This document shows positions 5,861 to 45,930 of a stretch of 64,000 nt of DNA, piece by piece (the stretch's first letter is position 1; each line of letters begins with the position of its first letter). The position numbers were made by a program, and so were the translations under genes. The stretch is from Bythopirellula sp. (GTDB lineage Bacteria > Planctomycetota > Planctomycetia > Pirellulales > Lacipirellulaceae): assembly GCA_965216565.1 (NCBI GenBank), contig OZ244170.1, positions 1,440,001 to 1,504,000 of the forward strand, in the 5' to 3' direction. A model generated the notes under the pieces. That model made no database searches. It was not told the origin of the DNA and saw only the letters and a program-made list of their open reading frames with translations.

Positions 5861-7597
5861 GGGCCTCCGCTTCGTTTATTCGCTTACAAAATGGTGTGGG
5901 GTTAGGTTTCGGCCAACCCCACAAAAGCCGTTCCTCGCGGAAAATCCTTGCTGGCAAGAAGCAAGCTCTCAGAGCCGGCACGCAGCAACCAGACAAAGGT
6001 CGCCTACGTGCAAGCATGCTGAGCATCGCTTCTGTTGGCGGGCACTAAAGCGTGTATGCGTCACTAGTTTCCTCAGTGACCACGCCCAATACATAGTGCC
6101 CGCACGATAAAACCTTCGCCGGACGCGTCACCGTGCAGAAAACGCACGGGTAGCGTCCGTCGTCAGTCTGCCGCCAGAAGTGGCTGCTCTTCCAAGAAGC
6201 CACCTCTAGCCGCATGCTGCCAGCCAGGTTGACCGAAACGCACAAAAACGTCTCGGCCGCACATCTCTTGACGGGGCCTTCGATTGCAAATCGCAATCTG
6301 GCTACCCCTCAGTCCTTTCGTTCCAGCTCGCTGAAGCATCACCTTCAGGTCAACACTGACGGGCCGCGACTGCCTTGCCGCGCACGGTGAGAACACCATG
6401 TCTGAACCTTCGCCCAGATCACCGCGAGAGCTTCCGCTCTCGTATCTAATCAGACCACTCTCCCCCACAACGGCGTTTGGCGGCGTCGCCGCTACTTCTA
6501 CCTTGTTGACCAAACAAGGCGCCGGGTCGCCAAACCCGGAGGCCGCTGTGGTTCCTGCGTTAGCATCGGTCTTCAACTCTGAGGTCACGTCGCTAGGGCG
6601 GGTTAGCGCCCGATCCATGTGGGTAGGTGCGGCCTTCCGGCACGTCCTACTTTCCCGACCAACTTGGTCGGATTTCCCCCTACGAAACTAGAAGCTCGGG
6701 GTAACGCTCCCACACAGACGTTCGCGGTTCGGCTACGTCTCCTCAGAATCTTACTGGCAAGCCCTCTCTTACCTTTTCGATTGGGCCTTTCATGGTTGAG
6801 CTTTTCACGGTCGGGCATTTAACCCGATCCCCGGAGTAGTCAACTCCGGTTTGGCCTGTCGCCAGGCTCAAAACTCCCCACGCCAGCCGCGTTGAACGAA
6901 CTCGCTTGCGCAAGCCCGGACCCCACGGGCGGGATTTTCACCCACTTTGGTTGCCGATCGTTCGGCAACGAGGCGGTCGATTGCTCGACTCACCTCACCG
7001 ACACGGCCTTGTTCGTTCGATTTTAGAGAACGAAGGCAAGGTTTTTCCGCATCGCCCAACTTCGTTGTCTGTCGCCTCGCGTGGAGGCCAGACCCTGCAT
7101 TTCCATTCCCGCGATACTGCGTGCGGGTAGGTCAGCATCTATTGGATAGAACGTCGGGATTGTTCCTTGACCGCATCACTTCTCTCTTACAACGAGAGCT
7201 TGCGACGCGCGGGTTTTACTCCGACGAGCCTCCATTGAACTGAGCGAGCCACTCTCATGGCACTCAGCTCGAAGGGTCAGCATGAGCGTTTGGCAACGCC
7301 AGGGAGTTGGCAACTCCCGGCCCTTATCCTCGATTGATGAGATCGAGATTCCTGGGCCTGCTGTCCCCATCAAGAGACATCAGCTCGCCCTCGTTATTCA
7401 CAGCTTTATGATTGACCGCGTCTTTCGAGGGCTGCGTTGTGCATGAGCTAACGACCGCCGGTCAAACTGCGACCGACGAGTCAGCTATAGCGTACAACAT
7501 CCATCAAGATCAATCAGTGATTCGCTCAGAAATCGCTCAGCATCTCTGCCTGGATATCCGCCTCCTCCTAACCCTCCTATGCGGACTAAAGGACCAC

Positions 7598-30681: not shown

Positions 30682-33600
30682 TTATGCGGCTGCTGATTCT
30701 GGTTCGATATGTTGTTGTAACGACTGATCGCGTTCAGCTTGGTGTGGCAAAGATTTGACGTGCAAATCGCATTGAGGGAAGGCGATTTCAATGTTGTGCT
30801 GTCTGAACAGATCATCGATGTCCAAATGCAGATCATGCCTTAAACGTCTGTACATGATGAGGTCATCGACAAACAGCCTGAGCTCAAAGTTTAAGCTGCT
30901 GTCGCCAAACTCGTTGAAGATGACGATCGGCTCGGGGTTATCAAGTACATTGCAGTTTTCTGCTGCGACTTGGTAGAGGAGCTTTGTAGCCAGTCGAGTA
31001 TCACTGCCGTAAGCGATACCTACGCGGACAATAAGACGCAAGTGAGGATTGGAGAGCGTCCAGTTCACCAAGTTCCCAGTGACGAAATCTTTGTTGGGAA
31101 CAATTAGTTCCTTGTTATCCCAGTCCAAAACGGTTGTCGCTCGAATGCGAATCTTCGTTACGGTACCTGTTATCTCACCAACGGTGACAGTGTCTCCCAC
31201 CCTCGCTGGGCGTTCGAATAGCAGAATGATACCTGACACAAAATTCGCAAAAATCTCCTGGAGACCGAAGCCGAGGCCGACTGTCATTGCAGCCACGAGC
31301 CACTGAACACTATTCCAGCCGATTCCAAGCTGACGCATTCCCAATGCCAGGCCGACCACTGTAATCGTGTAACGCGTGATTGAACTTGCTGCGTAACGCG
31401 CCCCCGCATCGAGAGGCAACTTTTGAAGGACTGTGATCTCCAAGAGCCCAGGTAAATTCCGTCCAGCGAACCAAGTGATTGACAAAATCAGTGCTGACGC
31501 GACTAGATCACCGAGTGTTACAAAAGTCGGTGCGGCGTCTGGATTTATTGGAGTGAGACTACTTGCCCAAAGCTCCACTCGATTAAAGACTCCCAAAGCG
31601 GGCAATACATCACCCCAGACAAACCACATGGACAGCACGAAGGCCGCGCCGACCCCCATGCCAACCAACTTGCGAGCTTGTTGATTAATATCAGCAAGGT
31701 TGAACTGTGGTTCAATTTCCACCGGAGCTGTTTCGGCTGACGTATTTTCCTGTGCTTCCAGCATGGCTTGTCGTTTTTCACGAGCGTGCTGCATCGCGAC
31801 GCGTCGGTAGGCGACCATCAGCCATCGCATAAGCAGCGAACGCAGTGCGAAGCAAGCAAACACGAACAAGCAGGAAACAAAGATCCGGCGAGTTAGCTGC
31901 ATCGCAGTGTAATGGTAGCCAGCAATTGAGGCAGTGATCAAAATAAATACACCCAGGGTCGTGAGTGGGCCGAGTAGTTTTACTAGTCTAGCAAACCAAT
32001 ACCCTTTAGCACTGGCGGCAATTGCTTTGTTAAGTGCTCCGTTCGATCGAAATAGTCGAAAGCAGACGGTTCCAATTACGAAAAGTGAGCTTATCAGGGA
32101 TAACCTTCCGAGCGAGTTGATACTTATCTCGTCGTTGCCAATCTCAACACCGACGGCAATCGCCAGTAGCGGTAGCGCCAATAGTTCTAAGGTACGTGCA
32201 GCTCGACGAATGGCGGCCAAACCTTTAATGTCCCAGCCAAAGTGGTTTGCACCCAAACCGCCTTGGCGAGAGGCGTGCCTGGCCAGATTCAGCATGGCGT
32301 AGGCGGCAGCAAAGAGCATGAGCGCCCAACCAGTGGAAAATGCGAGCGCGCTAGTGCCGCGACTCAATCGCCAGCCCACAAACCCAAAGCAGGTTGGTAT
32401 AGGTAGAGCCATAAACATGGTGGCGAGTGATGCCAACACGGTTGGCCGGAACTTGGTAGCAGTTGGCTTCGCGGCTGCTTCTCCTGTTTCTCGCAGAAGC
32501 GTGCGGGCACGTGAACGCCCCACCACAAGCGTAGTGGCTAACAGCAGGCCAAATCCCCACCAATGGGCACGTCGTTGAATGTCTCGTGATAGTATCATCC
32601 CCAGACTCTTAACTTGTGCTAGGCGGTTAGGAGCGTTACTCCAGAAGTCTTTCGTATGTTGCAGTTCTGGTAGACCAATCGTCGGTGCGCTACGAACCCA
32701 GAGTATTTGTTCGGCTATGAAATCAGAGAGTTCTTCAGTTGTTGAAACGACTTCACTCTCGGCGGCATCAAGTTCTTCAATACGGCTCAGGCTGTCACTA
32801 GCATTGGCGATCAATTCAGCAAGGATTTCCGTGCGTGCTTCGAAAATCCGACGTAATTCCTTAGCTGCAGCGTCGGACAACTCGATCGACTCATCTGCGA
32901 GCTGCTGTTTTGCTTGCTCTACCTGCTCATCACAGTGTAGGCACTCTCGGCGAAGTGATTCCCATTCGTAAACGTCCAATCCTAGTTGCGAAGCTTCGAC
33001 AGGCCGATGACCAAGGCGATCTCGAATTGGTGCGAGAGCCGGAAGCTGATCTTGTTGAGTGCGTAACATCGCCCCAATTGCCGTAGAGTGTTGCCCCGCA
33101 TCCGCACGTTTGGTGACATCGGTCAGACGATTCTTCATCGTTTGTCCTAACTCCTTCGCCTCCGTCAGCCGCGCGGTAAGTTGTTGCAATCGTAACACAA
33201 TTTTCTCGTTTCGATCGGCTAATTGTGCATTAAGAGCTGCAGCAGACTGCACTGCCGGGTGAGCGTTAATTGCAGTCATGCGAGCTGACTGCGCTTGCTT
33301 CTCCGCCTCCTGGCGTTTCGCCTCTGCCACCTGCTCTTTGACCGCTTGATGCTGTGAGACAACAGCTTGCAATTCTCTTTCGGCAGCATCTCTGCGTGCC
33401 AACCAGAGTCGAGAATTGGATTCGTACGTTAGGACTTCTTGTTCAAGCCATTGGTATTCGACCGACAAGTAATCACGGCGAGCCAAGTGATAAAGCTGCT
33501 TTGCTTCCGTTAGTATTGACACGCTCTTTTCGAGAGGTTGTCCGAGTGTGTTTGCCAAGGAATCATACTGCTCTCGATTTTTGGTCAACAGCTCTGGAAG

Positions 33601-34209
33601 GACCTTGCGACGTTCGGCCCGACGTTCAATTTCTGCCGTTACTTTCACCACTTTTTCTTTCGCAAGCGAAAGTTGCTGACCTAACGTTGTCAGGTAGTTG
33701 CGAAGTTGGTCGACTGAGGGTACTGCGGGCAGTTGCTGAATATCAACTGCAAGGCCGACGGGCTGCTGCAGCTTCTCAATTTCTGAACTAGAAAGCTCTA
33801 GTTCTTTCTTGAGAGCCTCAGTAGTTGCAGCTAACTTCTCTGCGTCGGCAAGCTTCGTTGCAGTTTTGTCACAAAATTCATTGGCTTCTGCGCGAGTCTC
33901 CTCGGTGCCTTCCTCGGCAATGTCGCAACGCTTCCGTAAGCGCGCTATCGCCTCAGATGAAACTTGATGCAACTCAACTCCAACGACTTCCCCCGAGGTA
34001 GATTCCGCGGCTAGTGCGGTTTGCGCTGCTACGGAATCCGCTGCTTGCACCTCTGCAATTGCTAGCTGACTACTGAGCGATAAAAGCGAGCAAAGGCTGC
34101 ATAATGCCAGTAGGTATCGATTACTTGTCACCAAAAACACCTTCCTTGGGCCGAGTCGCTGAGGAGACCTCGTAACTCTCATCAAATGCTGCAGTACGCT
34201 AGCAGCCAA
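30682..34209 (-). CDS. mscK: MscK/KefA-like large mechanosensitive channel (copy 1)
   Basis: Signal-like N-terminus, long coiled coil, multi-TM region, MscS core GLGFGLQEIFANFVSGIILLFERP.RVGD...IRIRAT...IAFPQ; start uncertain. Confidence 0.92.
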   Translation of the reverse strand: MAASVLQHLMRVTRSPQRLGPRKVFLVTSNRYLLALCSLCSLLSLSSQLAIAEVQAADSVAAQTALAAESTSGEVVGVELHQVSSEAIARLRKRCDIAEEGTEETRAEANEFCDKTATKLADAEKLAATTEALKKELELSSSEIEKLQQPVGLAVDIQQLPAVPSVDQLRNYLTTLGQQLSLAKEKVVKVTAEIERRAERRKVLPELLTKNREQYDSLANTLGQPLEKSVSILTEAKQLYHLARRDYLSVEYQWLEQEVLTYESNSRLWLARRDAAERELQAVVSQHQAVKEQVAEAKRQEAEKQAQSARMTAINAHPAVQSAAALNAQLADRNEKIVLRLQQLTARLTEAKELGQTMKNRLTDVTKRADAGQHSTAIGAMLRTQQDQLPALAPIRDRLGHRPVEASQLGLDVYEWESLRRECLHCDEQVEQAKQQLADESIELSDAAAKELRRIFEARTEILAELIANASDSLSRIEELDAAESEVVSTTEELSDFIAEQILWVRSAPTIGLPELQHTKDFWSNAPNRLAQVKSLGMILSRDIQRRAHWWGFGLLLATTLVVGRSRARTLLRETGEAAAKPTATKFRPTVLASLATMFMALPIPTCFGFVGWRLSRGTSALAFSTGWALMLFAAAYAMLNLARHASRQGGLGANHFGWDIKGLAAIRRAARTLELLALPLLAIAVGVEIGNDEISINSLGRLSLISSLFVIGTVCFRLFRSNGALNKAIAASAKGYWFARLVKLLGPLTTLGVFILITASIAGYHYTAMQLTRRIFVSCLFVFACFALRSLLMRWLMVAYRRVAMQHAREKRQAMLEAQENTSAETAPVEIEPQFNLADINQQARKLVGMGVGAAFVLSMWFVWGDVLPALGVFNRVELWASSLTPINPDAAPTFVTLGDLVASALILSITWFAGRNLPGLLEITVLQKLPLDAGARYAASSITRYTITVVGLALGMRQLGIGWNSVQWLVAAMTVGLGFGLQEIFANFVSGIILLFERPARVGDTVTVGEITGTVTKIRIRATTVLDWDNKELIVPNKDFVTGNLVNWTLSNPHLRLIVRVGIAYGSDTRLATKLLYQVAAENCNVLDNPEPIVIFNEFGDSSLNFELRLFVDDLIMYRRLRHDLHLDIDDLFRQHNIEIAFPQCDLHVKSLPHQAERDQSLQQHIEPESAAA

Positions 34210-34845: not shown

Positions 34846-35298
34846 TCACGCTGCCGGTGGCGTGGCGAGTGGAGCAAGAGCTTTGCGACCGACGATTTCG
34901 CCTCGACATACAATTGCCCCGCAGCAACACATAAACGAACGAAACAACACATCTTCTGTCTGTTCGTAGTCCATTGTCAGCAAACTACCAGCGGCGATAT
35001 TTCGCTCCGCGATAAACAGCCACGAACTGGTATCAAACCAAGAATTAGGATCACAACTATGTAGCACTTTGCCAGCAAAGTAAGGGTCGTCCAAGTGTGT
35101 GTCGGGTCCAATTTGCAACGTGGATTGGGTAATCTCATTAGTAATGACTCCATTCATGCGGAAGAGAATCTCGCCGCGATGAAAGGGGCGTAGAACGCGA
35201 ACGCCTTGTCCACGCTGAGGGTCTACGTCGATCACTTCAAAATCTTCGATTTGCGGTTCCAATGGAACCGGCTTGAGATGCGAAGGGTAAATTCTCAT
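34846..35298 (-). CDS. Stand-alone SET-domain methyltransferase with post-SET Cys motif
   Basis: RGQGV, LHSCDPN, LLTMDY, FMCCCGAIVCRG; start lies 4 nt inside the 3' end of the upstream gene (overlap 35295-35298). Confidence 0.88.
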   Translation of the reverse strand: MRIYPSHLKPVPLEPQIEDFEVIDVDPQRGQGVRVLRPFHRGEILFRMNGVITNEITQSTLQIGPDTHLDDPYFAGKVLHSCDPNSWFDTSSWLFIAERNIAAGSLLTMDYEQTEDVLFRSFMCCCGAIVCRGEIVGRKALAPLATPPAA

Positions 35299-35687
35299 TT
35301 CCTATAAATCACCTCCAATTCTATGACTTTGGGTCCGAAGAAAAGCTTCGTCACCCGTTCGACGGTTTCAGTATTAAACGGCTTGCAGCTAAAGACATCC
35401 AAATACATGTCGCGATGCGCGTCGTTTGTATGCAGCATGATGGCACTTGTTTGGATGAGCTGAACGCCAGAGATACCTGTTTCGATGCCTTCGCCAAAAC
35501 GAGCCACAAACGGCAACCCAAAGCTAACCATGTCGATTTCATCCACCATCTTCTGTAAGAAATCAAATAGGACCTCTATCGAAAGCAGTTGATCGTTGCA
35601 GCTACGGGCAGTGACCAGAGCATGTTGCCCATAGTGAGGTTGTCCGTTGTGCTGGATGCGTCGATATTCGGGTAGCGCAGAGGGCAT
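35295..35687 (-). CDS. S-adenosylmethionine decarboxylase-like pyruvoyl proenzyme
   Basis: YGQH, GISGVQLIQT-S-AIMLH (self-cleavage site), YLDVFSCKPF; GGAG RBS. Confidence 0.85.
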   Translation of the reverse strand: MPSALPEYRRIQHNGQPHYGQHALVTARSCNDQLLSIEVLFDFLQKMVDEIDMVSFGLPFVARFGEGIETGISGVQLIQTSAIMLHTNDAHRDMYLDVFSCKPFNTETVERVTKLFFGPKVIELEVIYRK

Positions 35688-35978
35688 AACATTCTCCAAG
35701 CGAGAAAAACGATTCGAGGAAGAATCGAGAGAGAACCTGAGAGCAGTAACTGCAAGGAAGCAGCCCAGATTGTCAGAGAGAGACCGAACGTTCCGATCAG
35801 CAATCGGAGGCGGTCTTTGTCAGTTCAACTATGATTATATTATGTCGTAACGCAAAGTATTCAAGATGCTTTTTACAGAGATTATCCTTAAGGTAGCTGC
35901 ATGCTATCATGAAATTAGAATGGTTGTAGCAGGACGACACGCTAACCAATAAATTGTCCCTAATTACAAAATTGTTAT

Positions 35979-37160
35979 TTATTCAGGTCGTATCGTTACA
36001 TCATTTTGCAGAGAGTCCGTGATTTGATGTCTAGACGCATTGCTCTGGGAACTGCTCGCTACATCACCATTCGCTGCGGGGCCCGATAGCCATCCACGTC
36101 GCCAGAAGAAACCAATCAAACCCGTAGCCACCGCAACCATCAACGTAAGCGCTAACGGGTAACCAAGCGCCCAGTCCAATTCCGGCATCATTTTGAAGTT
36201 CATTCCGTAGACGCCGGCAATAAAGCTGAGTGGAATGAATATGGTGGCGATAATAGTCAACACTTTCATGACTTCATTCATGCGATTGCTAACCGCTGAA
36301 AGGTAAAACTCGCGTAGGTTGCCGCACATCTCGCGGTAGGTGTCGAGCGAGTCTAATATTTGCACGACGTGGTCGTAGCAATCTCGAAAATAAAGTTGTG
36401 TCTCTTCAGAAACTAGTGAGTGCGAATCACGCATCAGCATCACAAGTTCGTCCCGCAGTGGCCGTATCGCCCGTCGTAACATCATCAGGTCACCACGGAT
36501 TTCGTGAATGTGCTCCATCAGTTGAGGATTGCACTCCGACAAGATGGTTGCATCGAGGTGTTCGAGGCGTTCACCATACTCGTCTACAATTGGAAAATAG
36601 AAATCAACAACGGCGTCGAGTAGGGCGTATACAAGGTAGTCGGAGCCTGAGGTTCGAATGCGACCACGCCCCTTGCGTAGACGCTCTCGCACGGGATCAA
36701 GGCAGTCTCCTTGTCGCTCCTGAAAGGTCAGTACGAAGTTCTTGCCGACGAACATGCTAATTTGCTCCGTCTCCATGATGTCGTTCCACGACATCATTCG
36801 GGCGACGATGAAAAGATGGTCGCCATACTCCTCGACCTTCGCACGTTGATGAACGTTCACTACATCCTCCAAGGCCAGAGTGTGTAGGTCGAATATCTCA
36901 CCGAGCTTCTCAACTTTTCTTGCATCGCCTAATCCAACTACGTCAACCCAAGTGACACCTGAAGAGGCAACGTAATGCCGTAGCTGCTCGAGTTCGTGGA
37001 CTTCCTCTTCCTTGATTATGGCCCGATCGTAGTGCATGATGCGCACCACGGGCTGCGGAGCACCGGGGTGGACTACCACTGAACCTGGAGAACTTCCTGG
37101 AGTCGTCATTCGCTGAACACGGACACTTCGCCGATGTCTGCGTTTACGTTTTTTTACCAT
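35979..37160 (-). CDS. corA: Magnesium/cobalt transporter CorA
   Basis: LALEDV...QRAKVEEY, MNEVMKVLTIIATIFIPLSFIAGVYGMNF (GMN motif). Confidence 0.96.
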   Translation of the reverse strand: MVKKRKRRHRRSVRVQRMTTPGSSPGSVVVHPGAPQPVVRIMHYDRAIIKEEEVHELEQLRHYVASSGVTWVDVVGLGDARKVEKLGEIFDLHTLALEDVVNVHQRAKVEEYGDHLFIVARMMSWNDIMETEQISMFVGKNFVLTFQERQGDCLDPVRERLRKGRGRIRTSGSDYLVYALLDAVVDFYFPIVDEYGERLEHLDATILSECNPQLMEHIHEIRGDLMMLRRAIRPLRDELVMLMRDSHSLVSEETQLYFRDCYDHVVQILDSLDTYREMCGNLREFYLSAVSNRMNEVMKVLTIIATIFIPLSFIAGVYGMNFKMMPELDWALGYPLALTLMVAVATGLIGFFWRRGWLSGPAANGDVASSSQSNASRHQITDSLQNDVTIRPE

Positions 37161-37439: not shown

Positions 37440-38483
37440 TTACAGCGTACACATGTCGACGTTATCGAAGTTACGCCCATAGTAGTGCATGTATTCGACC
37501 TTCTTTTCTATAGCTTCGATCACCAGGGTCGAAAAGTTGACCTTCTCGAACTGCTGGGCGCTACCTAACCCACCAGGGCTAAATACGTTGATTTCCATTA
37601 ACTTGTTGCCGACGATGTCGAGACCAACTAGGAACATGCCATCTTGTACGAGCTTGGGGCGGACAATCTCTGCAATTTGCAGGTGTGTTGCGGTGATTTC
37701 CGCAGCCGCTTTCGAGCCCCCTGCATGAACGTTGCTACGCATGTCGCCGCCACTCCGCACGCGACGGAAGGCGGCATATTTTTTGCCGATTCGTAGGGGG
37801 CGGCCGTTCATGACAAACAGTCGCATGTCGCCTTCTTCGGCTGCAGGTAAATACTCTTGAGCAATTACGAACCCATCCCGGCTGACCGCGTCGATCATCT
37901 GATTCAAGTTGGGAATATCTGCCTGGCGAATCAGAAACACGCTAGCACCTCCAGAGCCTTGAAGCGGTTTGACCACGATGGTTCCTAGCTCTTGTGCAAA
38001 ATGTTTGATTTCATCACGATCGCGAGTGATTAATGTTTGAGGACGCACGGTTTCTGGAAACAATTGAAAGTACATCTTGCTAGATGCTTTAGCTAAGCCG
38101 TTTGGGTCACTGAGGATGATCACGCCATGCCGCATGGCGACACGGGCGAATTCTGTTGCGGCAGTGCTGGCCCAGGGACGACTGAGATAGTCATCGGAGG
38201 GCACGTTACGTAGAACTAGGACGTCCAATTCATCCGCCGTGATTCGGCGTTTGACTGCCTTTTTGCTTTGCAAATCTGCAGTAAAACTGTCGGAGCTACC
38301 GTACTTTTCTTTGGGAACTGATGTTGCTCGCGCGCGAACCATGTCGTCGGGATCGTAAGCCAAGTCTCCAACACCCATCACCCAAACTTCATGGCCGCGA
38401 TTCACTGCCGCCTGCCCGAGACGCATCGTCGTGAATTTCTTTTCCTCGGTTTGAACGTCGTTGACGATGAATCCTATTCGCAT
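37440..38483 (-). CDS. Glutathione synthetase-like ATP-grasp ligase (copy 2)
   Basis: KPLQGSGG, QEYLP, GDMRL, RSNVHAGG, VGLDIVG..LMEINVFSPG. Confidence 0.88.
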   Translation of the reverse strand: MRIGFIVNDVQTEEKKFTTMRLGQAAVNRGHEVWVMGVGDLAYDPDDMVRARATSVPKEKYGSSDSFTADLQSKKAVKRRITADELDVLVLRNVPSDDYLSRPWASTAATEFARVAMRHGVIILSDPNGLAKASSKMYFQLFPETVRPQTLITRDRDEIKHFAQELGTIVVKPLQGSGGASVFLIRQADIPNLNQMIDAVSRDGFVIAQEYLPAAEEGDMRLFVMNGRPLRIGKKYAAFRRVRSGGDMRSNVHAGGSKAAAEITATHLQIAEIVRPKLVQDGMFLVGLDIVGNKLMEINVFSPGGLGSAQQFEKVNFSTLVIEAIEKKVEYMHYYGRNFDNVDMCTL

Positions 38484-38537
38484 GATGTTTTCCTTTATCT
38501 CTAATACCATTTAATCAAGTGATGCGTGCGATAATGG

Positions 38538-39581
38538 CTACAGAGTACACATGTCGACGTTGTCAAAGTTGCGGCCATAGAACTCCATGTAGCCAGCCTT
38601 CCGTTCCAGAGCACCGATCACATATTTGTTGAAGTTGATTTTGGTGAATTTTTGAGCGCTCCCGAGCCCACCAGGACTGAAGACGTTGATCTCCATGAGC
38701 TTGTCTCCCACGATATCCAGACCGACGAGAAACATGCCGTCCTGCACCAATTTCGGCCGTACTATTTCGGCGATTCTGAGATCTTTTTCGGTCACTTCAG
38801 CCGCAGCAAGTTTGCCGCCCGCATGAATGTTGCTACGCATGTCCCCCCCCATGCGAACTCTACGGAATGCGGCATACTTTCCTTTTACTTGGAGAGGGCG
38901 GCCGTTCATGACAAACAACCGCATGTCACCCTCTTCAGCGGCGGGTAGGTATTCCTGGCAGATCACATAGCCATCGCGACTCACAGCGTCGATCATCTGG
39001 TTCAGGTTGGGTATGTCCGACTCTTGTATCAGAAAAACCCCCGTCCCCCCCGAACCTTGGAGAGGTTTCAGGACGCAGCGTCCCTCCGACTTAGCAAAAT
39101 CTCGAATCTCTTCACGATCGCGAGTAATCAACGTTCTCGGACGCACTTCTTCAGGAAACAATTGGAAGTACATCTTCGTCGAGGCTTTTGCCAGACCGTT
39201 GGGGTCATTAACTACGATCACGCCATTGCGCATCGCCACTCGTCCAAATTCAGCGGCTGCAGTTGCAGCCCATGGCCGTTTGAGATAATCGTCTGATGGC
39301 ACGTTGCGGAGCATCAAAACATCGAGTTCGTCGACCGTGACTCGCTTTTTTACACTCTTGGGGCCTTGCAGGTCTCGAAGAAAAGTCTCTTGCGACTTGT
39401 ATTTTGTCTGCGAGACAGTACGTGCTCTCGCTCGTACGAGTTCGTCCGGATCGTAGGCGATGTCACCTACGCCAAAGACGTAGGCCTCGTGCCCTTGGTT
39501 GACCGCTTCGCAGGCGAGCCGCGTCGTGGTGAATCCAGCTTCTTCAGTGGCAATATCGTTGACGATAAATCCTATTTTCAT
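38538..39581 (-). CDS. Glutathione synthetase-like ATP-grasp ligase (copy 1)
   Basis: Same motifs; tandem paralogue with identical C-terminus YGRNFDNVDMCTL. Confidence 0.88.
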   Translation of the reverse strand: MKIGFIVNDIATEEAGFTTTRLACEAVNQGHEAYVFGVGDIAYDPDELVRARARTVSQTKYKSQETFLRDLQGPKSVKKRVTVDELDVLMLRNVPSDDYLKRPWAATAAAEFGRVAMRNGVIVVNDPNGLAKASTKMYFQLFPEEVRPRTLITRDREEIRDFAKSEGRCVLKPLQGSGGTGVFLIQESDIPNLNQMIDAVSRDGYVICQEYLPAAEEGDMRLFVMNGRPLQVKGKYAAFRRVRMGGDMRSNIHAGGKLAAAEVTEKDLRIAEIVRPKLVQDGMFLVGLDIVGDKLMEINVFSPGGLGSAQKFTKINFNKYVIGALERKAGYMEFYGRNFDNVDMCTL

Positions 39582-39625
39582 CCAAGCGTTCCTTTGACTG
39601 AGTTTTTCGTATGAGTGATTCTGCG

Positions 39626-42600
39626 TTAGTTCGATGGAGCTGTAGTTTCTCGTCCGTCGGCATTTGTCTGCTGAGGCTGGAACCAAAACTCACGTGAGGC
39701 ACTATTTGCGGCATGAATATGCAAATCCCGTTGTGGGAAAGCGATGGTAATGCCCGCGGCAGCAAACTCGCGTGCAATTGCCGCATTGAGTTCGTGCAGC
39801 CCCTTGAGTCGATCTCCGATGCGTGCGTGATAGACACGCAGAGAAAAAATCAGCGAGCTGTCGCCAAATTGCTGCAAGAGGGCAACTGGCTTGGGTGAAT
39901 TAAGAACTCGCGGATTTTCACTCGCAACTTTAAGTAGCAAGTCACGAACCTGATCAGGGTCGGAGCCATACGCGACTCCAACCTCAATCACACGCCGGTT
40001 GGTCTTGTTCTGCAGAGTCCAGTTCAGCAAGCGACCTGTGGCGAATTCCTTGTTCGGCACCACCAGATCCTTGCGATCCCAGTCGGTAATTGTCGTCGCC
40101 CGCATGCGAATCGATTGCACAACGCCAGTCGTATCACCAATCGTAATCACATCTCCGACGCGCATTGGACGCTCAAAGAGAATGATCAAGCCAGAAATGA
40201 AATTGGCAAAAATTTCCTGCAAGCCGAAACCTAAACCGAGCGACAGAGCGGCGGCCATCCATTGCACTTTGCCCCAACCGATTCCTAAGCACCCGGCTGC
40301 GAAGATGGCAGCAGCAATCCAGAGCGTATAGCGAGCAATGGTCGTGATCGAATTCCGTAGCGAACTATCGAGAGCTAATTGGTCGAGCACCGGCAGCTCG
40401 AACAATCCATCCAGATAACGCGAAGCCATTACAGTGCTGATCACCACAAACATCGCCAGCAACAGGTCACCCAATGTCACAGGTACTAAGGTGGGAACTC
40501 TCACATCAGGCGCGGGCGATTCAGTTCCAAGCGGTGCAGAGGGTTGGCTAGTTATAACTTCTGTTTCCCACAGTGTCGTATTGCTGACGGCATGGAGCGC
40601 AGGAAAGACGTCGCTCCAAATCCACCAGCCTCCCAGCAGCAGCACTAGCACCAGTAGCGAGGTCACTAGAGACTGTATCTTGTCCTCTGGTTTATCCAAC
40701 TGAACAAACCAACCATCTCCCGTGTCAGGTAGCGGAAAAGTTCCCTCGCTGCTCTCCTTTTCACGATTCGACAACGCAGTGGCAGCTCGTTGACGAGCAA
40801 CAGTTTGAATAGCTCGTCGGCGAGCGATCAAACGACTACCATGTAGCAACAACGACCCGACGACGAACAGGCAGGCCATCAGCAGAAATGTTGAGCGTAC
40901 TTCCTGCCCCAAACGTTCCGCCGAGTAGGTGTACCCCACGATCGCAAGAACGCCGAGCGTTAGGTGTGCCCCCACTCCGACGAGGTAGAGAGGCCAACGC
41001 AATCGATGTAGCAGCGTCTTTTCGCTTGGCTTGGCCGCACGATAGAGTATGCCCGAGTTCGGCCTCAACAATTGCTCGCTAAAGAGTGCGACTACCAAGA
41101 CATTCACGACGTAACAAAGTCTGCCCAGTGAGTCCTGCAACCGCACATCGTCCTGGGCATTCAGTGTCGTCATGATAAGAATAAGTGGAAGAACGACGAC
41201 CGCTAACGGAAACAGCGCTCTCCGCATAGCTGCGATACCCGGGGCAGACCAGCCAAGATGTCGGCGGGCAAAGCCTTTACGTCTGCAGAGCCGAATGAGC
41301 ACTGCCAGAGGTAATAAGCATATCGCGACGTTGATCAGACCAATCCCGACTGCTCGTTCATATCCCTCAGAATTTCCAGCGTTGACTAATCGCTGACCTG
41401 CGAAGGCTAAAAACAGCGGCAATGGCACGGCACACAGAGCGACTCGCAGTAGATCACGTAGAATTCGCCAATATCTCGATGGCCTCTGTGCAGACGATTG
41501 AGGCAAACTATGACGAATCGTCATTTGCCAGCCTAGTGTGCGTGCAGAAAGCAACGATATAGCAACCAAACCAAAAGGCAAGGGGTGCTTCGCATAGTCA
41601 GCAGAGATCGTATTCCAAGTTTGTCGGAGAAATCCACCTTGAAAGAAATCTCGTATTCCGTCAAAGGAGGCAGCAACAGAGCTTGACGACATGCTTTCGG
41701 TGCTGCGTACCCAAAGAACGTTTTCGTCAATGAAGTTGGTCAGGCTGCTGATGTCCTGAGCAAGTTGGCGTTGGGCTTCATCAAGGGCTAGTAATTGCTC
41801 AAGATAGACTTTGTAATCCTCTAGGAGCAAATCAACGTAACGTCGCTCCGCGTTTAACAAACGCTCCCAAGTTTTACGAGGATTCTCGCTCGCCTGCTTT
41901 TCGTCTGGCAACTTTCCCTGCGTAATTAGCCGGTTCATCTCATTCTCGACATTGGCTAGGTCAGAGCGTCGATCCTGGAGTTCGAGCAGGGCCAGTTGCG
42001 CCGTTTTCAGTGTTTGCTGACGGAGGTCAATTTCACGCTCATGCTGGTCGATGCGTGGAAGCTCAGACTTTTGCTTACGCATAAGCAAGCCGATGGTCCC
42101 TGTAAGTCCAACTGCCTCGACTTTGCGGCGAATCCTACCTTGTTGTTGATTGAGCTGGGTCGCTGTTGAATTGATCGCTGCCAGTGCATCGTTCGTAGTG
42201 TCAATCTGCTGACGTAATTCTTGGCGACGCTCCACCAATGCCAGATTAGTGCTCGCAAGGTCTGCAAACTGTGGTAAACCGGTGTTTCTATTAGTTTCTT
42301 CTTTGGCCTCAATCAGATGCAGGGCAACTTCGGTTGTTCGTTTGCGATTCAACTCACCCTGTAGCGTCTTGGCGATTTTGTGCAATCGGGCAACGCGGTT
42401 TGCCGCTACGTCTCGCTGCAATGGCAACAAGTCGATCGTTGCCTGATAGGCCTTTAGTTCGATGGCACCCACATCAATTGCCGACTGAGTGGCTCGAATG
42501 CTAGCCTCCAATTGAACTCGTTTTGCAGCCGCCAATTCAGGTGGATCGTTGGTCTTGTCTATTAGCTTGAGGGTTTGTTCGTCCTGCTGTAGCTTCTCAC

Positions 42601-43117
42601 GCAAACTAATGCGTTGCTGAGGAATCTCCTTGCGCCTAGTCGCGCGGTATTTTGGTTCTTTATCAAGGCGTCGCAGGACTTTCTTTGCTTCCGAGAGTTC
42701 GGCTTCCGCTTCAATCAGCTTTTCTTGCAGAATAGAGATAGACACTTCAGAGCCAACTACAGGTAGAGCCGCTTGTGCCAGCTGGCTGAGTTCGTACCTA
42801 GTGCGCCCGACATCTTCTGGGGCAGTTCGCTGCGATGATGCATACTGCTCTGACAAAACAGCTAGCTTGTCTGCCTGCCGCAGATCAGCAATTGCCAATT
42901 CGTAAAGCGTCAGAATCTGCTTTTTTGTCTCTTCAGGTAGAGCTGAGGTAGCTTTTGTAGCTTCTATCTGCGACTGAAGTTTCTCAACAGAGATCGTGTC
43001 TGCCAGCAGAGTTTGCGATGAGCAAAGGCCAATTGCCAAAAACACGGAAGTGGCAAAGCTCAATAATGAGAAGATTGTAGAATACTGGAACGATCTGTTT
43101 TGAAAGATGCTCTTCAT
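39626..43117 (-). CDS. mscK: MscK/KefA-like large mechanosensitive channel (copy 2)
   Basis: Signal peptide, coiled coil, TM domain, GLGFGLQEIFANFISGLIILFERPMRVGD, IAFPQRDLH. Confidence 0.92.
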   Translation of the reverse strand: MKSIFQNRSFQYSTIFSLLSFATSVFLAIGLCSSQTLLADTISVEKLQSQIEATKATSALPEETKKQILTLYELAIADLRQADKLAVLSEQYASSQRTAPEDVGRTRYELSQLAQAALPVVGSEVSISILQEKLIEAEAELSEAKKVLRRLDKEPKYRATRRKEIPQQRISLREKLQQDEQTLKLIDKTNDPPELAAAKRVQLEASIRATQSAIDVGAIELKAYQATIDLLPLQRDVAANRVARLHKIAKTLQGELNRKRTTEVALHLIEAKEETNRNTGLPQFADLASTNLALVERRQELRQQIDTTNDALAAINSTATQLNQQQGRIRRKVEAVGLTGTIGLLMRKQKSELPRIDQHEREIDLRQQTLKTAQLALLELQDRRSDLANVENEMNRLITQGKLPDEKQASENPRKTWERLLNAERRYVDLLLEDYKVYLEQLLALDEAQRQLAQDISSLTNFIDENVLWVRSTESMSSSSVAASFDGIRDFFQGGFLRQTWNTISADYAKHPLPFGLVAISLLSARTLGWQMTIRHSLPQSSAQRPSRYWRILRDLLRVALCAVPLPLFLAFAGQRLVNAGNSEGYERAVGIGLINVAICLLPLAVLIRLCRRKGFARRHLGWSAPGIAAMRRALFPLAVVVLPLILIMTTLNAQDDVRLQDSLGRLCYVVNVLVVALFSEQLLRPNSGILYRAAKPSEKTLLHRLRWPLYLVGVGAHLTLGVLAIVGYTYSAERLGQEVRSTFLLMACLFVVGSLLLHGSRLIARRRAIQTVARQRAATALSNREKESSEGTFPLPDTGDGWFVQLDKPEDKIQSLVTSLLVLVLLLGGWWIWSDVFPALHAVSNTTLWETEVITSQPSAPLGTESPAPDVRVPTLVPVTLGDLLLAMFVVISTVMASRYLDGLFELPVLDQLALDSSLRNSITTIARYTLWIAAAIFAAGCLGIGWGKVQWMAAALSLGLGFGLQEIFANFISGLIILFERPMRVGDVITIGDTTGVVQSIRMRATTITDWDRKDLVVPNKEFATGRLLNWTLQNKTNRRVIEVGVAYGSDPDQVRDLLLKVASENPRVLNSPKPVALLQQFGDSSLIFSLRVYHARIGDRLKGLHELNAAIAREFAAAGITIAFPQRDLHIHAANSASREFWFQPQQTNADGRETTAPSN

Positions 43118-43121
43118 CGGA

Positions 43122-45050
43122 TTACCTCACTTCCTTGCGAGATGCCAATTCGGCCAACGAACAAGAGCTTTCCCGCAACACATTGAGGCGTTTCACGGAG
43201 TCACTGGTGAGTAAATGCCTAGGCACAAGCGGTGGAGCATGCAGCACCTTGCGATATTGCAGTTCTCTGACGATTGGCAAATGCTCGTGGGCAATCTTGC
43301 CCACAAACAGCACATTGATGTCTCCATTCTGCTGAAGGTGCTGCAAGACGGTTTGCAAACCTCGCAAATAGACGGCGTCCTTGGTTAGGCCTCCTCCACG
43401 GTAGACGCGCATCACGATGTTGTAAGCTCTGCGTTTCGTGAAGCCGAATTTATTGACGAGTGCACGAAAGGCTTCTACAAAAGTCGCGTGTTCAGTCCTT
43501 AGTCGTACCGCGACAACGCGGCCAGCGAGTTGACGTAAACGAGCATCGCTCAGTCCGCCCACCAAGTACTCGGACAGTACAGCAATGCCTTCCTGAAGTT
43601 CTTCGTAACCCGATAAACCAGCATGCAGTAGCTGAAACGGCTGTGCCTGAGCGTTATAGTACGTCAGTACATGCGTACCCACTTCGTGGGCTAAGAGGGC
43701 TTGGACGCGTGACTGAGATATATCAAGATCCGAGTTGATCAGTAGCGTCCCCCGAGAGACCATCACGCCACTAACTTCTTCGGTCACTTCAGCCCGGCCT
43801 GCAAACTCGGGCCAAGTATTGTGATAGTGACGGAATTCATCGCGTGCCAGTGCTGCAAACTCTTCTGCAGTTACTGAGCCTTTTTTTCTTTCAGAGGCAT
43901 CCCTAGCCACTAAGGAAAGAAGACTCAGTGCCTCACCGTAGAGGTCGTCCTTGACGCCGCCAAATAGCTGCAAGCTCTGGTACAAGAACCTCGGTGTGTC
44001 GCGGTCTTGTAGCATTGTCAGCTGTAGTTCTAGCTCGGCTTGTTTTTCATAAAAGAGTCGCTGTAGTGCAGGATCCTCTACACGCTCGATTGGAATCTTG
44101 AACAGCTCGCGTTTGAGAGCAATGGGGTCCACCGTTTGTGGTCGATAGTGAAATTCGGGGGCTTGCTCAAACTTACTCCGGTGGAATTCATGCCAAGCCT
44201 GCACCGTGTTGACCGGAGTCAGCTGCAGTAGGTAATCGAATTGGTCACTAATTCCCGCCAGACGACGATCAGCGTTCCAGACGGATTTGACAACTGCTTT
44301 GCGACCAAGTGCGTGGAAGTGGGGTGGGCGGTGTGATGTACAGGTACGGGCAAATTCATAAAAAGCTTGGCGCAAGGCCAAACTCACGCTCCGTCTTAAG
44401 GAACGAGCCAATAGGGGATAGTCTTCTTCAGAGCCCGCTGCACGATATACGGGAGGTACTGTCAGCCCCAGGAAGGAGCAATGGAGTTCGCTTGCCCTTT
44501 TTATCGACAACAGCGGCGCAAATTGCGTTGGCCAGGTCTTGCCGTCACGTTGTACCTCGACCTTTACCCCTTGTTTCAGCACCTTGATACGGCGCAAACG
44601 CTTGGCGAGTGCTTCCACTGCTCGGCTGATGGATGCTTGTGAGGATGCATGAATGGCGAATTTCGGTAACACGTCGGGTACTGCCGGATCATTCGCATCC
44701 CCTCCCTCGGGAGCCGCCCATACTTCGACGATTAGCAGTGCACCGAACTCTCTCGCAAGCGCTTCTGTAACACAGTCAACAACAAGAGATATTTCCTTTG
44801 GCGACGCTTCTGCCTCTGTGACGATAAGGTAGGATGCTTCGGCTTTGACGAGGTGCTCAGTCCCCGAATCGGAAGCATCGAGCGGCTGACGATAGATGCA
44901 CAGAAATGGTAACTGCCGATCAATGTGCAGGCGCCCAATTCCGGGCAGCGTACGTCTTACTCGTTGATTCTGCGCAAGGCGTTGAGAGACCACATCGAGG
45001 ATGGATCTAAGGAGTTTTGATCTCTTGATGGGTTCCTTGCTGATGGGCAA
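43122..45050 (-). CDS. DUF1704 / QEGLA-motif (MATCAP-like) zinc metallopeptidase
   Basis: HEVGTH (HExxxH), LQEGIA, RVYRGGGLTKDAVYLRG; N-terminal GRLHIDRQLPFLCIYR. Confidence 0.88.
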   Translation of the reverse strand: MPISKEPIKRSKLLRSILDVVSQRLAQNQRVRRTLPGIGRLHIDRQLPFLCIYRQPLDASDSGTEHLVKAEASYLIVTEAEASPKEISLVVDCVTEALAREFGALLIVEVWAAPEGGDANDPAVPDVLPKFAIHASSQASISRAVEALAKRLRRIKVLKQGVKVEVQRDGKTWPTQFAPLLSIKRASELHCSFLGLTVPPVYRAAGSEEDYPLLARSLRRSVSLALRQAFYEFARTCTSHRPPHFHALGRKAVVKSVWNADRRLAGISDQFDYLLQLTPVNTVQAWHEFHRSKFEQAPEFHYRPQTVDPIALKRELFKIPIERVEDPALQRLFYEKQAELELQLTMLQDRDTPRFLYQSLQLFGGVKDDLYGEALSLLSLVARDASERKKGSVTAEEFAALARDEFRHYHNTWPEFAGRAEVTEEVSGVMVSRGTLLINSDLDISQSRVQALLAHEVGTHVLTYYNAQAQPFQLLHAGLSGYEELQEGIAVLSEYLVGGLSDARLRQLAGRVVAVRLRTEHATFVEAFRALVNKFGFTKRRAYNIVMRVYRGGGLTKDAVYLRGLQTVLQHLQQNGDINVLFVGKIAHEHLPIVRELQYRKVLHAPPLVPRHLLTSDSVKRLNVLRESSCSLAELASRKEVR

Positions 45051-45108
45051 AACGATTCCTTTTGTAATGTAGTAAATCAGCAGCCTCTCTCATCGCATTT
45101 TCACGCCC

Positions 45109-45930
45109 CTAGTGAGCAATGAGTTGAAGCTTGTTTACCTCTTCTAAAATCCCAGGTACCGTCGACGCTAAAGCCTTCTGTACTGCTTTCAATAAATGTC
45201 GTTCGGGTTTGCCGCTCCATTCGCACATAAAGAACTTTTTGAATTCAATTGAAATCACACACGCTGCCTCTGGAAAACACTGGTGTGTCCATTCGGCATG
45301 GTGACCACCCATGAATTTTACATTTTCGCGCACATCAAGTCGCCCAGTTGGGAAATCATAGTTGGATAGTTCATACATGAAGCGATAGAGTAATGGACGA
45401 AACCGTGGCTCTGATCGCATCGTGCCCGTACCAATGTTGACTTGTGGGTTCTCAGCCGGATCTGCGAGTGGCCCATTGGGACCGTTCCGACGATGGTTGT
45501 ACGTATGCAGGTCGAAGACAACAAAGGTTCCATGCTCCTCGGCTAACTCCTGGTAGAGCATACCGAGCGCCTCGTAAAACCGATCGTACTGCTTAAGGGA
45601 ACGCTGCGCGATTTCTTCTGGAAGCTCTTCTTTCCAAATTTGTAATCCCCACGCATCTTCTGGTTTTCGATAGACGGCTCGTTCACGAGGACGATTGAGA
45701 TCGACCTCAAACCGAGAGCGCAAGCCAACCACACGTGTTGGCGCGACTTCCGTCCAATCGCCCGTGTAGGGATCTTCTTCACGCCGTCGATCCTCTTTGC
45801 TGATCGCCATCTGCTCATGCACTTCGCTACGTACCTCGTGGCCATGGTGAATAGCGGTCGCAACGATTGGCCCTGCTCCACGATGAAGCTCCCAAATTTG
45901 ATCGGTCACCTGCGTTCTCTGCGTATGCAA
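45109..45930 (-). CDS. N-formylglutamate amidohydrolase family protein
   Basis: TAIHHGH, REEDPYT, SRFEVDLNR, FDLHTY, ENVKFMGG, ISIEFKK. Confidence 0.9.
   Translation of the reverse strand: MHTQRTQVTDQIWELHRGAGPIVATAIHHGHEVRSEVHEQMAISKEDRRREEDPYTGDWTEVAPTRVVGLRSRFEVDLNRPRERAVYRKPEDAWGLQIWKEELPEEIAQRSLKQYDRFYEALGMLYQELAEEHGTFVVFDLHTYNHRRNGPNGPLADPAENPQVNIGTGTMRSEPRFRPLLYRFMYELSNYDFPTGRLDVRENVKFMGGHHAEWTHQCFPEAACVISIEFKKFFMCEWSGKPERHLLKAVQKALASTVPGILEEVNKLQLIAH

Follow-up and report, generated by a model that had tools for sequence, protein, structure and literature searches.

A 64,000-nt stretch of a Bythopirellula sp. genome (contig OZ244170.1, positions 1,440,001 to 1,504,000; hereafter the window) carries two overlapping minus-strand genes, one for a small protein with the fold of S-adenosylmethionine (AdoMet or SAM) decarboxylases and one for a stand-alone SET-domain protein. 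We propose that the two form a self-contained module converting methionine to S-methylmethionine (SMM), and SMM to 3-aminopropyl-dimethylsulfonium, the amine of dimethylsulfoniopropionate (DMSP-amine), by means of a pyruvoyl-dependent decarboxylase. We put the probability of this reading at about 0.63. We infer the chemistry from what could be observed directly, namely the genes, the fold, the family placements, the coupling of the genes, their fusions and their contexts. A first-pass annotation of the window had suggested an SMM to DMSP-amine pathway with an osmolyte role; the pathway, predicted from sequence, is still the best reading, but the osmolyte role, which was drawn from the neighbouring genes, did not hold up.

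By its sequence, the SET protein is a stand-alone protein of the BurB type and is not lysine-SET-like. Pfam assigns it to SET at 24.9 bits, barely above the cut-off of 22.4. Its top match in the PDB is BurB of Burkholderia thailandensis (9L4T; 116.8 bits, E 7e-33, residues 3-141), and the second-best match, a histone lysine methyltransferase, scores 22.8 bits. A profile of 45 family sequences gave the same order, with BurB at 176.7 bits and the runner-up at 46.7. A fold search with the model of a phage relative also returned BurB first (Z 17.4, rmsd 3.7, 142 aligned; next hit, Z 11.2). These results confirm by sequence and by fold a resemblance that the first-pass annotation had proposed. The homology covers the full length, the two proteins are alike in size, and about 68 of 140 aligned columns are identical (~49%, counted by eye). 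The motif LHSCDPN, previously called altered, is indeed present, but BurB reads LLHSCVPN, the same LHSCxPN type, and this rules the motif out as a sign of novelty. The SAM and active-site residues of BurB are R42, A44, H72, H93, Y124, R133 and H138 (PMC12542666). R29, H80, Y111 and R120 of the window protein correspond to R42, H93, Y124 and R133, and the post-SET CxC..C is present. At A44, H72 and H138 the window protein has Q31, S59 and C125; the text of PMC12542666 leaves unstated whether side chains are used in these contacts. Unlike BurB, the window protein has no polyketide synthase (PKS), nonribosomal peptide synthetase (NRPS), BurD or BurE gene nearby, is partnered by a pyruvoyl enzyme, and has relatives in Planctomycetota, Spirochaetota, Chloroflexota, Bacillota and phages. 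We propose it as a methionine S-methyltransferase. Among the relatives, one SET domain is fused to GTP cyclohydrolase II (P0201), and the SET copy of one family genome is interrupted by an internal TAA (G407:C8:776416-776835).

The partner protein matches Pfam AdoMet_dc at 53.4 bits (cut-off 25). Its structural model (pLDDT 94.7) was matched by Foldseek to the class 1b AdoMet decarboxylase (AdoMetDC) SpeD of Thermotoga maritima (E 1e-8, TM 0.76, rmsd 1.9) at 18% identity. The processing residues S81, H86 and C101, equivalent to SpeD S63, H68 and C83, are invariant in 33 sequences; S81 is the predicted pyruvoyl site, with cleavage between T80 and S81. Unlike T. maritima SpeD, the protein has no SpeE partner, scores 29.8 against the SpeD equivalog TIGR03330 (cut-off 75.65) and lacks the Trp, Pro and Glu of the HTWPE-type motif, with D89 apparently at the position of SpeD's conserved Pro after HTW. 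The Trp and Glu of HTWPE are, we assume, adenosine contacts in AdoMetDC. From sequence and model, the protein is of the class 1b AdoMetDC fold and belongs with the lineage of the SpeDC pyruvoyl ornithine decarboxylases, a point absent from the first-pass annotation. SpeDC enzymes, which derive from AdoMetDC (PMC10407285, PMC9992855), are defined by a Gln, a Thr, a Phe and a Tyr (PMC10407285); we placed these four residues with the help of two validated sequences shown in that paper's Fig. S5. Three of these marks are kept (Q76, T80 and Y95), and the sequence YLDVFSCK is shared as well. The Phe is missing, and the protein has T87-N88-D89 instead, forming an HTND motif. At the Phe position, Thr is found in 99% of 71 distinct HTND proteins and Phe in 99% of 89 distinct SpeDC-type (HF) proteins, and at least eight further near-fixed positions separate the two groups, which makes HTND a distinct subfamily. 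The QT-S cleavage site is as the first-pass annotation read it, but it is not unusual, Thr before the pyruvoyl Ser being common to validated ornithine decarboxylases. In a careful tree of 43 rows, with two long branches omitted, a bootstrap not fully settled and no validated enzyme among the rows, one starred branch (99/95) unites the HTND with the HF enzymes and sets them apart from the Trp/Pro-type enzymes. The HF enzymes form a starred clade (99/95), and the window protein falls outside it within an unresolved HTND grade whose monophyly is unsupported in this tree. An origin of SpeDC from within the HTND group is a possibility, and it stays at that because the outgroups are long.

The HTND enzyme and the SET protein are found together far beyond chance. 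Searches seeded with the decarboxylase alignment were run on metagenomes, viral contigs, a sample of the phylum and genomes of the family; some of the loci are duplicates or come from kin, and the flanks are often short. Among the best 80 of 520 metagenome loci, 39 were HTND, 37 of them with SET adjacent, and none of the 41 HF loci had SET; the two HTND loci without SET have just 12 and 388 nt of DNA downstream. The best 80 of 345 loci on viral contigs comprised seven HTND loci, six with SET, and 73 HF loci, none with SET. Matches were found in 15 of 401 genomes of the phylum sample, where the only HTND enzyme was that of the window's own genome, and nine HF loci were free of SET for 1.5 kb around. 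In the family, 28 of 120 genomes have an HTND enzyme and all 28 have SET directly downstream, the two HMM matches lying at most 6 nt apart; a separate search for SET returned the same 28 genomes. Summed over these samples, SET stands beside HTND at 71 of 74 loci and beside HF at 0 of 123, or 0 of 82 when the HF count is limited to distinct proteins whose downstream flank reaches 500 nt or more. Spirochaetota, Chloroflexota, Brevibacillus and a Rhizobium replicon carry the pair as well. Conservation of the pairing across genomes, which the first-pass annotation had set as a condition, is thereby borne out in several phyla and, as described next, by fusions. The reverse coupling, from SET to HTND enzyme, is looser. 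In one Botrimarina locus (L001:5599-9453), metH lies immediately 3' of the pair.

To look for fusions, we took 29 long proteins from the 150 best profile matches. SET is fused to an HTND enzyme in two of them (P0194 and P0264) and to a pyridoxal 5'-phosphate (PLP) fold-III decarboxylase in five (P0208, P0214, P0215, P0288 and P0314). On a plasmid of Sphingomonas paeninsulae, a SET gene precedes a PLP decarboxylase gene that bears the annotation diaminopimelate decarboxylase; both lie in a signalling cluster without an aminotransferase (L335:5911-7649). A plasmid of Eleftheria carries a bur-like cluster in the order PKS, SET, TauD, aminotransferase and dehydrogenase. In Burkholderia, BurI acts after BurB, and deletion of burI leads to accumulation of SMM (PMC7496086). 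Unrelated decarboxylases are thus exchanged beside the same methyltransferase, and no other observation argues as strongly for SMM as the substrate of the pyruvoyl enzyme. BurI, the Streptomyces SMMDC and the Spartina SDC are, we take it, all PLP enzymes. The window enzyme would carry out their reaction at the same place, after a methionine S-methyltransferase, and differs from them in being a predicted self-cleaving pyruvoyl enzyme of 130 aa and of unrelated fold.

In the proposed pathway, the BurB-type SET protein would methylate free methionine on its sulfur with SAM as the donor, yielding SMM, as its identity to BurB and the conserved SAM contacts suggest. The decarboxylase proenzyme would cleave itself at T80/S81 to form the pyruvoyl group, as expected from the Ser, His and Cys residues and the fold. 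The mature enzyme, a proposed SMM decarboxylase, would then convert SMM to DMSP-amine, a step to which the obligate coupling and the exchange with PLP decarboxylases point. SMM corresponds to AdoMet minus its adenosyl group and retains the aminocarboxypropyl-sulfonium of AdoMet, and the HTND group has neither the Trp nor the Glu of HTWPE. The pyruvoyl enzyme would accordingly be a non-homologous stand-in for the PLP-dependent SMM decarboxylase BurI.

What becomes of DMSP-amine in the host is a separate matter. One possibility, which builds on the proposed pathway, is that general aminotransferases and dehydrogenases finish the synthesis of DMSP for osmoprotection; we consider this unlikely, if still worth entertaining. 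In its favour, burD and burE are partly dispensable, mutants of B. thailandensis in either gene still making product, though less of it (PMC7496086), and the genome offers five class III aminotransferase, ten aldehyde-dehydrogenase and nine amine-oxidase family matches. Relative to the bacterial DMSP methylation pathway (bur or S. mobaraensis type), the methionine S-methyltransferase gene is present, by homology, and no clustered BurI-type decarboxylase, aminotransferase or aldehyde dehydrogenase is linked to the pair. General homologs of bur-type genes elsewhere in the genome are 27-38% identical, and the best matches to the aminotransferase and the dehydrogenase of the bur-like cluster, at 32% and 38%, lie far from the pair. 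The two MscK-like genes and corA, which the first-pass annotation took as osmotic context, are present beside the pair in the window, but across the 28 family loci the flanks are not conserved, and this rules out the neighbourhood as evidence: within 1.5 kb, a hemerythrin neighbour is found at just three of the 28, no osmotic gene was seen to recur, and no BurD- or BurE-like genes are linked. Nor does an aminotransferase or dehydrogenase recur among 52 clustered loci. The genome has no match to the DMSP lyase family PF16867, the one lyase family searched for. An aminotransferase and aldehyde dehydrogenase cluster near 0.79 Mb was considered as a DMSP route and set aside, since the CN-hydrolase and xanthine/uracil permease genes alongside make it look more like pyrimidine breakdown. 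A stand-alone homocysteine S-methyltransferase, as in an SMM cycle, was likewise rejected as a third member of the module, being found in only one of 120 family genomes with the query used. A gene of this kind (L331; G000:C1:2753960-2757805) adjoins a member of the SBP56 family, which we take to be the methanethiol-oxidase family; with the query used, it is not shared by family genomes.

The amine itself is probably the product that matters, either as a small dication or as a building block; the planctomycete may keep it in free form or use general enzymes to oxidise it to DMSP. Elsewhere the pair stands beside enzymes that could accept an amine, and such neighbours suggest that DMSP-amine serves as a building block, perhaps one added to phage DNA. 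In Brevibacillus laterosporus B9 (NZ_CP011076.1, about 567-610 kb; L337:29-6372, L338), a large NRPS cluster ends in C-A-T-C-SET, the HTND gene follows directly, and neither Pfam nor motif searches found a thioesterase in the NRPS. A second protein (P0191) has the same end, with a SET domain 88% identical. A terminal C domain in an NRPS suggests release onto a free amine. The terminal group of bleomycin A2 is 3-aminopropyl-dimethylsulfonium, and its origin 'remains enigmatic' (PMC10664482). The likeness lies in a terminal amine that is the proposed product of the pair and that a C domain attaches. The connection is drawn by analogy with the Brevibacillus C-SET/HTND cluster and does not come from a bleomycin producer. 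On plasmid p7 of Rhizobium bangladeshense, a phage-like replicon of 109 kb, an Asn-synthase-like gene overlaps SET and is followed by an HSND decarboxylase (L333:5958-7870); a ParB annotation and methyltransferase genes are found close by.

Phage-type cassettes are a further setting of the pair (Table 1). About eight distinct contigs carry ParB, the HTND decarboxylase, SET, an IbrA-like gene (PAPS_reduct and DUF3440), an IbrB-like ParB gene and, where the contig extends, a terminase; the window locus lacks this cassette order, and IbrA and IbrB have no match in the window's genome. The cassette SET is usually fused to a domain of ~95 aa with the motif WxFAKxxxxxPHxY, for which the ESM Atlas gave no usable match, the fold searches with the fusion model having covered the SET part only. 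One phage SET protein carries an extra integrase-like N-terminus, as judged by eye, possibly from an insertion or an assembly chimera (L091:5375-6388). We surveyed 80 of 218 IbrA loci with a profile built from pair-bearing cassettes, so that its top ranks are circular. Six loci held the pair, one was cut within SET, three had another SpeD type without SET, and most of the others had methyl-, acetyl- or glycosyltransferase-like or unknown genes; the small domain was present at 54 of the 80. A third SpeD type occupies the slot in seven of ten further loci, and in all, two different SpeD types, E/S (HAFP/HSFP) and T/S (HIWD/HTWD), fill this slot of other IbrA cassettes (L240, L243-L245, L247-L249; L275, L276, L323), with a fusion to the same small domain in L275. 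Among isolated phages, the SET homolog was found in 0 of 50,697 records, and matches to the decarboxylase were merely 27-32% identical. Some DNA-modifying enzymes of phages are activated by ParB proteins, which are also found together with terminases (PMC13229309). We found no description of the chemistry of IbrA/IbrB (phrog_2302 and phrog_2159) cassettes in the literature, judged mainly from titles and abstract openings, and the target could also be protein or glycan. Serratia phage eta was dropped as a comparison; it has no modified base. A wider scheme would take HTND enzymes as a fourth activity of the AdoMetDC fold and, with the BurB-type SET, as a portable DMSP-amine module. In it, aquatic phages would carry the module within ParB/IbrA/IbrB/terminase cassettes, whose PP-loop ATPase would couple the amine, or just the aminopropyl portion, to the DNA of the phage, an NRPS would use the amine as a bleomycin-A2-type terminus, and SpeDC might have arisen from within the group, substrates passing from AdoMet to SMM to ornithine. 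Taken as a whole we regard this scheme as doubtful.

Several observations weigh against SMM as the substrate and against a fixed pairing. One HTND gene lacks a SET gene for 5 kb around (L090:4366-6018; an AT-rich viral contig, where it lies among glycosyl- and sulfotransferase genes), and several BurB-type SET genes have no HTND enzyme nearby (L002, L005, L232, L233 and L334). Two histidines of BurB, H72 and H138, are replaced in the window protein, and since BurB holds methionine, including its carboxyl, through main-chain atoms only (PMC12542666), the substrate is not readable from SET side chains. A Pseudomonas homolog (178.8 bits) and a PLP fusion (156.5 bits) score higher against BurB than does the window SET. 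In a quick-mode tree of 52 rows, BurB itself not among them, a starred clade contains the PLP fusions together with the bur-like Eleftheria SET, and the planctomycete SET proteins are not part of it. Three pyruvoyl-linked SET proteins do fall inside that clade, and they count in favour of the SMM reading. The characterised enzymes nearest to the decarboxylase use ornithine, and with three of four SpeDC marks retained, ornithine is a real rival substrate. Membership of that clade does not fix the substrate either, because one enzyme of the ornithine decarboxylase (ODC) clade, from a Sinorhizobium phage, is a true AdoMetDC (PMC9992855).

Among readings with a different chemistry, the one that survives best is a SpeDC-lineage decarboxylase of ornithine, or of methyl-ornithine or lysine, paired with an N-methyltransferase, giving a methylated diamine or a quaternary amine; we judge it improbable. 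Besides the retained marks and the shared branch, it gains from the genome: no SpeY or other ornithine or arginine decarboxylase was found among the families searched, which did not include homospermidine synthase, and the single PLP fold-III match is lysA-like and lies 2 Mb from the pair. With no other putrescine route found, there is room for an ODC role, and equally a free dication could replace a polyamine. SET domains usually methylate amines, which also counts for this reading. On the other side stand the replaced SpeDC Phe with the further positions fixed otherwise, the absence of SET from all HF loci, the BurB-like character of the SET protein, and the neighbourhood: unlike validated speDC genes, the pair has no polyamine genes among its neighbours at 52 clustered or 28 family loci.

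A reversed order of steps would give the same product, with the pyruvoyl enzyme converting methionine to 3-methylthiopropylamine and the SET protein then S-methylating this amine. The pair would in that event be the enzymes that the DMSP 'decarboxylation pathway' still lacks, described as unidentified in PMC13360808, and the decarboxylase gene does come first in most loci. BurB, however, acts on methionine and binds its carboxyl (PMC12542666), SMM builds up when burI is deleted (PMC7496086), and the AdoMetDC scaffold prefers cationic side chains, as in AdoMet, ornithine and arginine (PMC10407285). This order is very unlikely in our view. Least probable of all is a true AdoMetDC whose decarboxylated SAM serves the SET protein or other enzymes as aminopropyl or methyl donor: the fold, the status of the gene as the genome's sole AdoMet_dc match, the AdoMetDC activity of the phage enzyme in the ODC clade and the E/S-type SpeD genes in the same slot of other IbrA cassettes speak for it, and against it stand the score far under the SpeD cut-off, the missing Trp, Pro and Glu, the lack of a SpeE above cut-off and the distance from the Sinorhizobium phiM12 homolog, which is just 29% identical and not HTND.

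The gene layout is given in Table 1. The two open reading frames (ORFs) and their overlap are real, as the first-pass annotation had them, and the ATGA suggests translational coupling. Each gene is single-copy in the genome, which is a single contig of 5.21 Mb, 94% complete; its close relatives with names are Lacipirellulaceae planctomycetes. The absence of a spermidine synthase, which that annotation reported for the window, is likewise corroborated: none was found among the 47 window ORFs scanned, and the whole genome has no match to TIGR00417 above cut-off, its sole spermidine-synthase-like match being a protein of ~990 aa with a long hydrophobic N-terminal part that scores below it. The GC content of the pair is 49%, against 53% for the window. 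No Rfam family matched at the pair, and promoter- and terminator-like sites in the region, including the hairpin upstream of the decarboxylase gene, are no more frequent than expected by chance. A hemerythrin-like gene is also among the neighbours. On the minus strand at 37440-45930 lies a row of two PRK12458-type ATP-grasp ligases, an MscK-like gene, a QEGLA/MATCAP peptidase and an N-formylglutamate amidohydrolase. The stretch 3036-29962 is mobile-element-like, with an IS4 transposase, the 3' fragment of a group II intron (7141-7272), ParA/ParB, kinases, a TraD-like coupling protein, an MT-A70 methyltransferase and DUF1580.

Table 1. Features at and around the gene pair (window coordinates) and contigs with phage-type cassettes.
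Feature	Position	Strand	Basis or remark
Decarboxylase gene, 130 aa, ATG at 35687	35295..35687	-	ORF and Pfam AdoMet_dc
SET gene, 150 aa	34846..35298	-	ORF and Pfam SET
ATGA stop/start overlap of the decarboxylase and SET ORFs, 4 nt	35295..35298	-	Sequence
GGAG, putatively ribosome-binding, 6 nt 5' of the decarboxylase ATG	35694..35697	-	Sequence
Terminator-like hairpin, 23-40 nt 5' of the decarboxylase start	35710-35727	-	Sequence
MscK-like genes flanking the pair	30682-34209; 39626-43117		Neither reaches the MscK equivalog cut-off
corA flanking the pair	35979-37160		
Phage-type cassette contigs	L047:5394-10697, L089, L095, L091, L041, L039, L045, L018, L017, L028; also L092-L094		

The pathway step itself is known; what would be new is a BurB-type methyltransferase with a pyruvoyl enzyme in place of the PLP decarboxylase. 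We found no description of a SET and decarboxylase pair or of a pyruvoyl SMM decarboxylase in the literature, judged mainly from titles and abstract openings, and supplements of papers could list HTND proteins. As proposed, the pair works like BurB and BurI, yet by their defining features it is outside the bur cluster, SpeD and SpeDC. The proposal is cheap to test because both proteins are shorter than 160 aa and cultured carriers exist, among them Botrimarina hoheduenensis; Aeoliella, Pirellulimonas and Posidoniimonas possess the SET homolog. If true, it would give the pyruvoyl AdoMetDC fold a new substrate and provide a PLP-free route from SMM to DMSP-amine. A 2026 review describes BurB as 'reported exclusively in Burkholderia thailandensis' (PMC13360808); BurB-type S-methylation of methionine would extend from this one species to several phyla and to phages. 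The pair would escape surveys of DMSP genes based on the markers dsyB, mmtN and dsyGD. It offers concrete candidate genes for the NRPS terminal amine of 'enigmatic' origin and, for some of the uncharacterised IbrA/IbrB cassettes of phages, a specific candidate substrate; if the phage reading is true, these cassettes would make a sulfonium-bearing cationic DNA modification of unknown kind. Together, these results suggest that the pair, found in unrelated bacteria, in an NRPS cluster and in phage packaging regions, may be an overlooked source of DMSP-amine.

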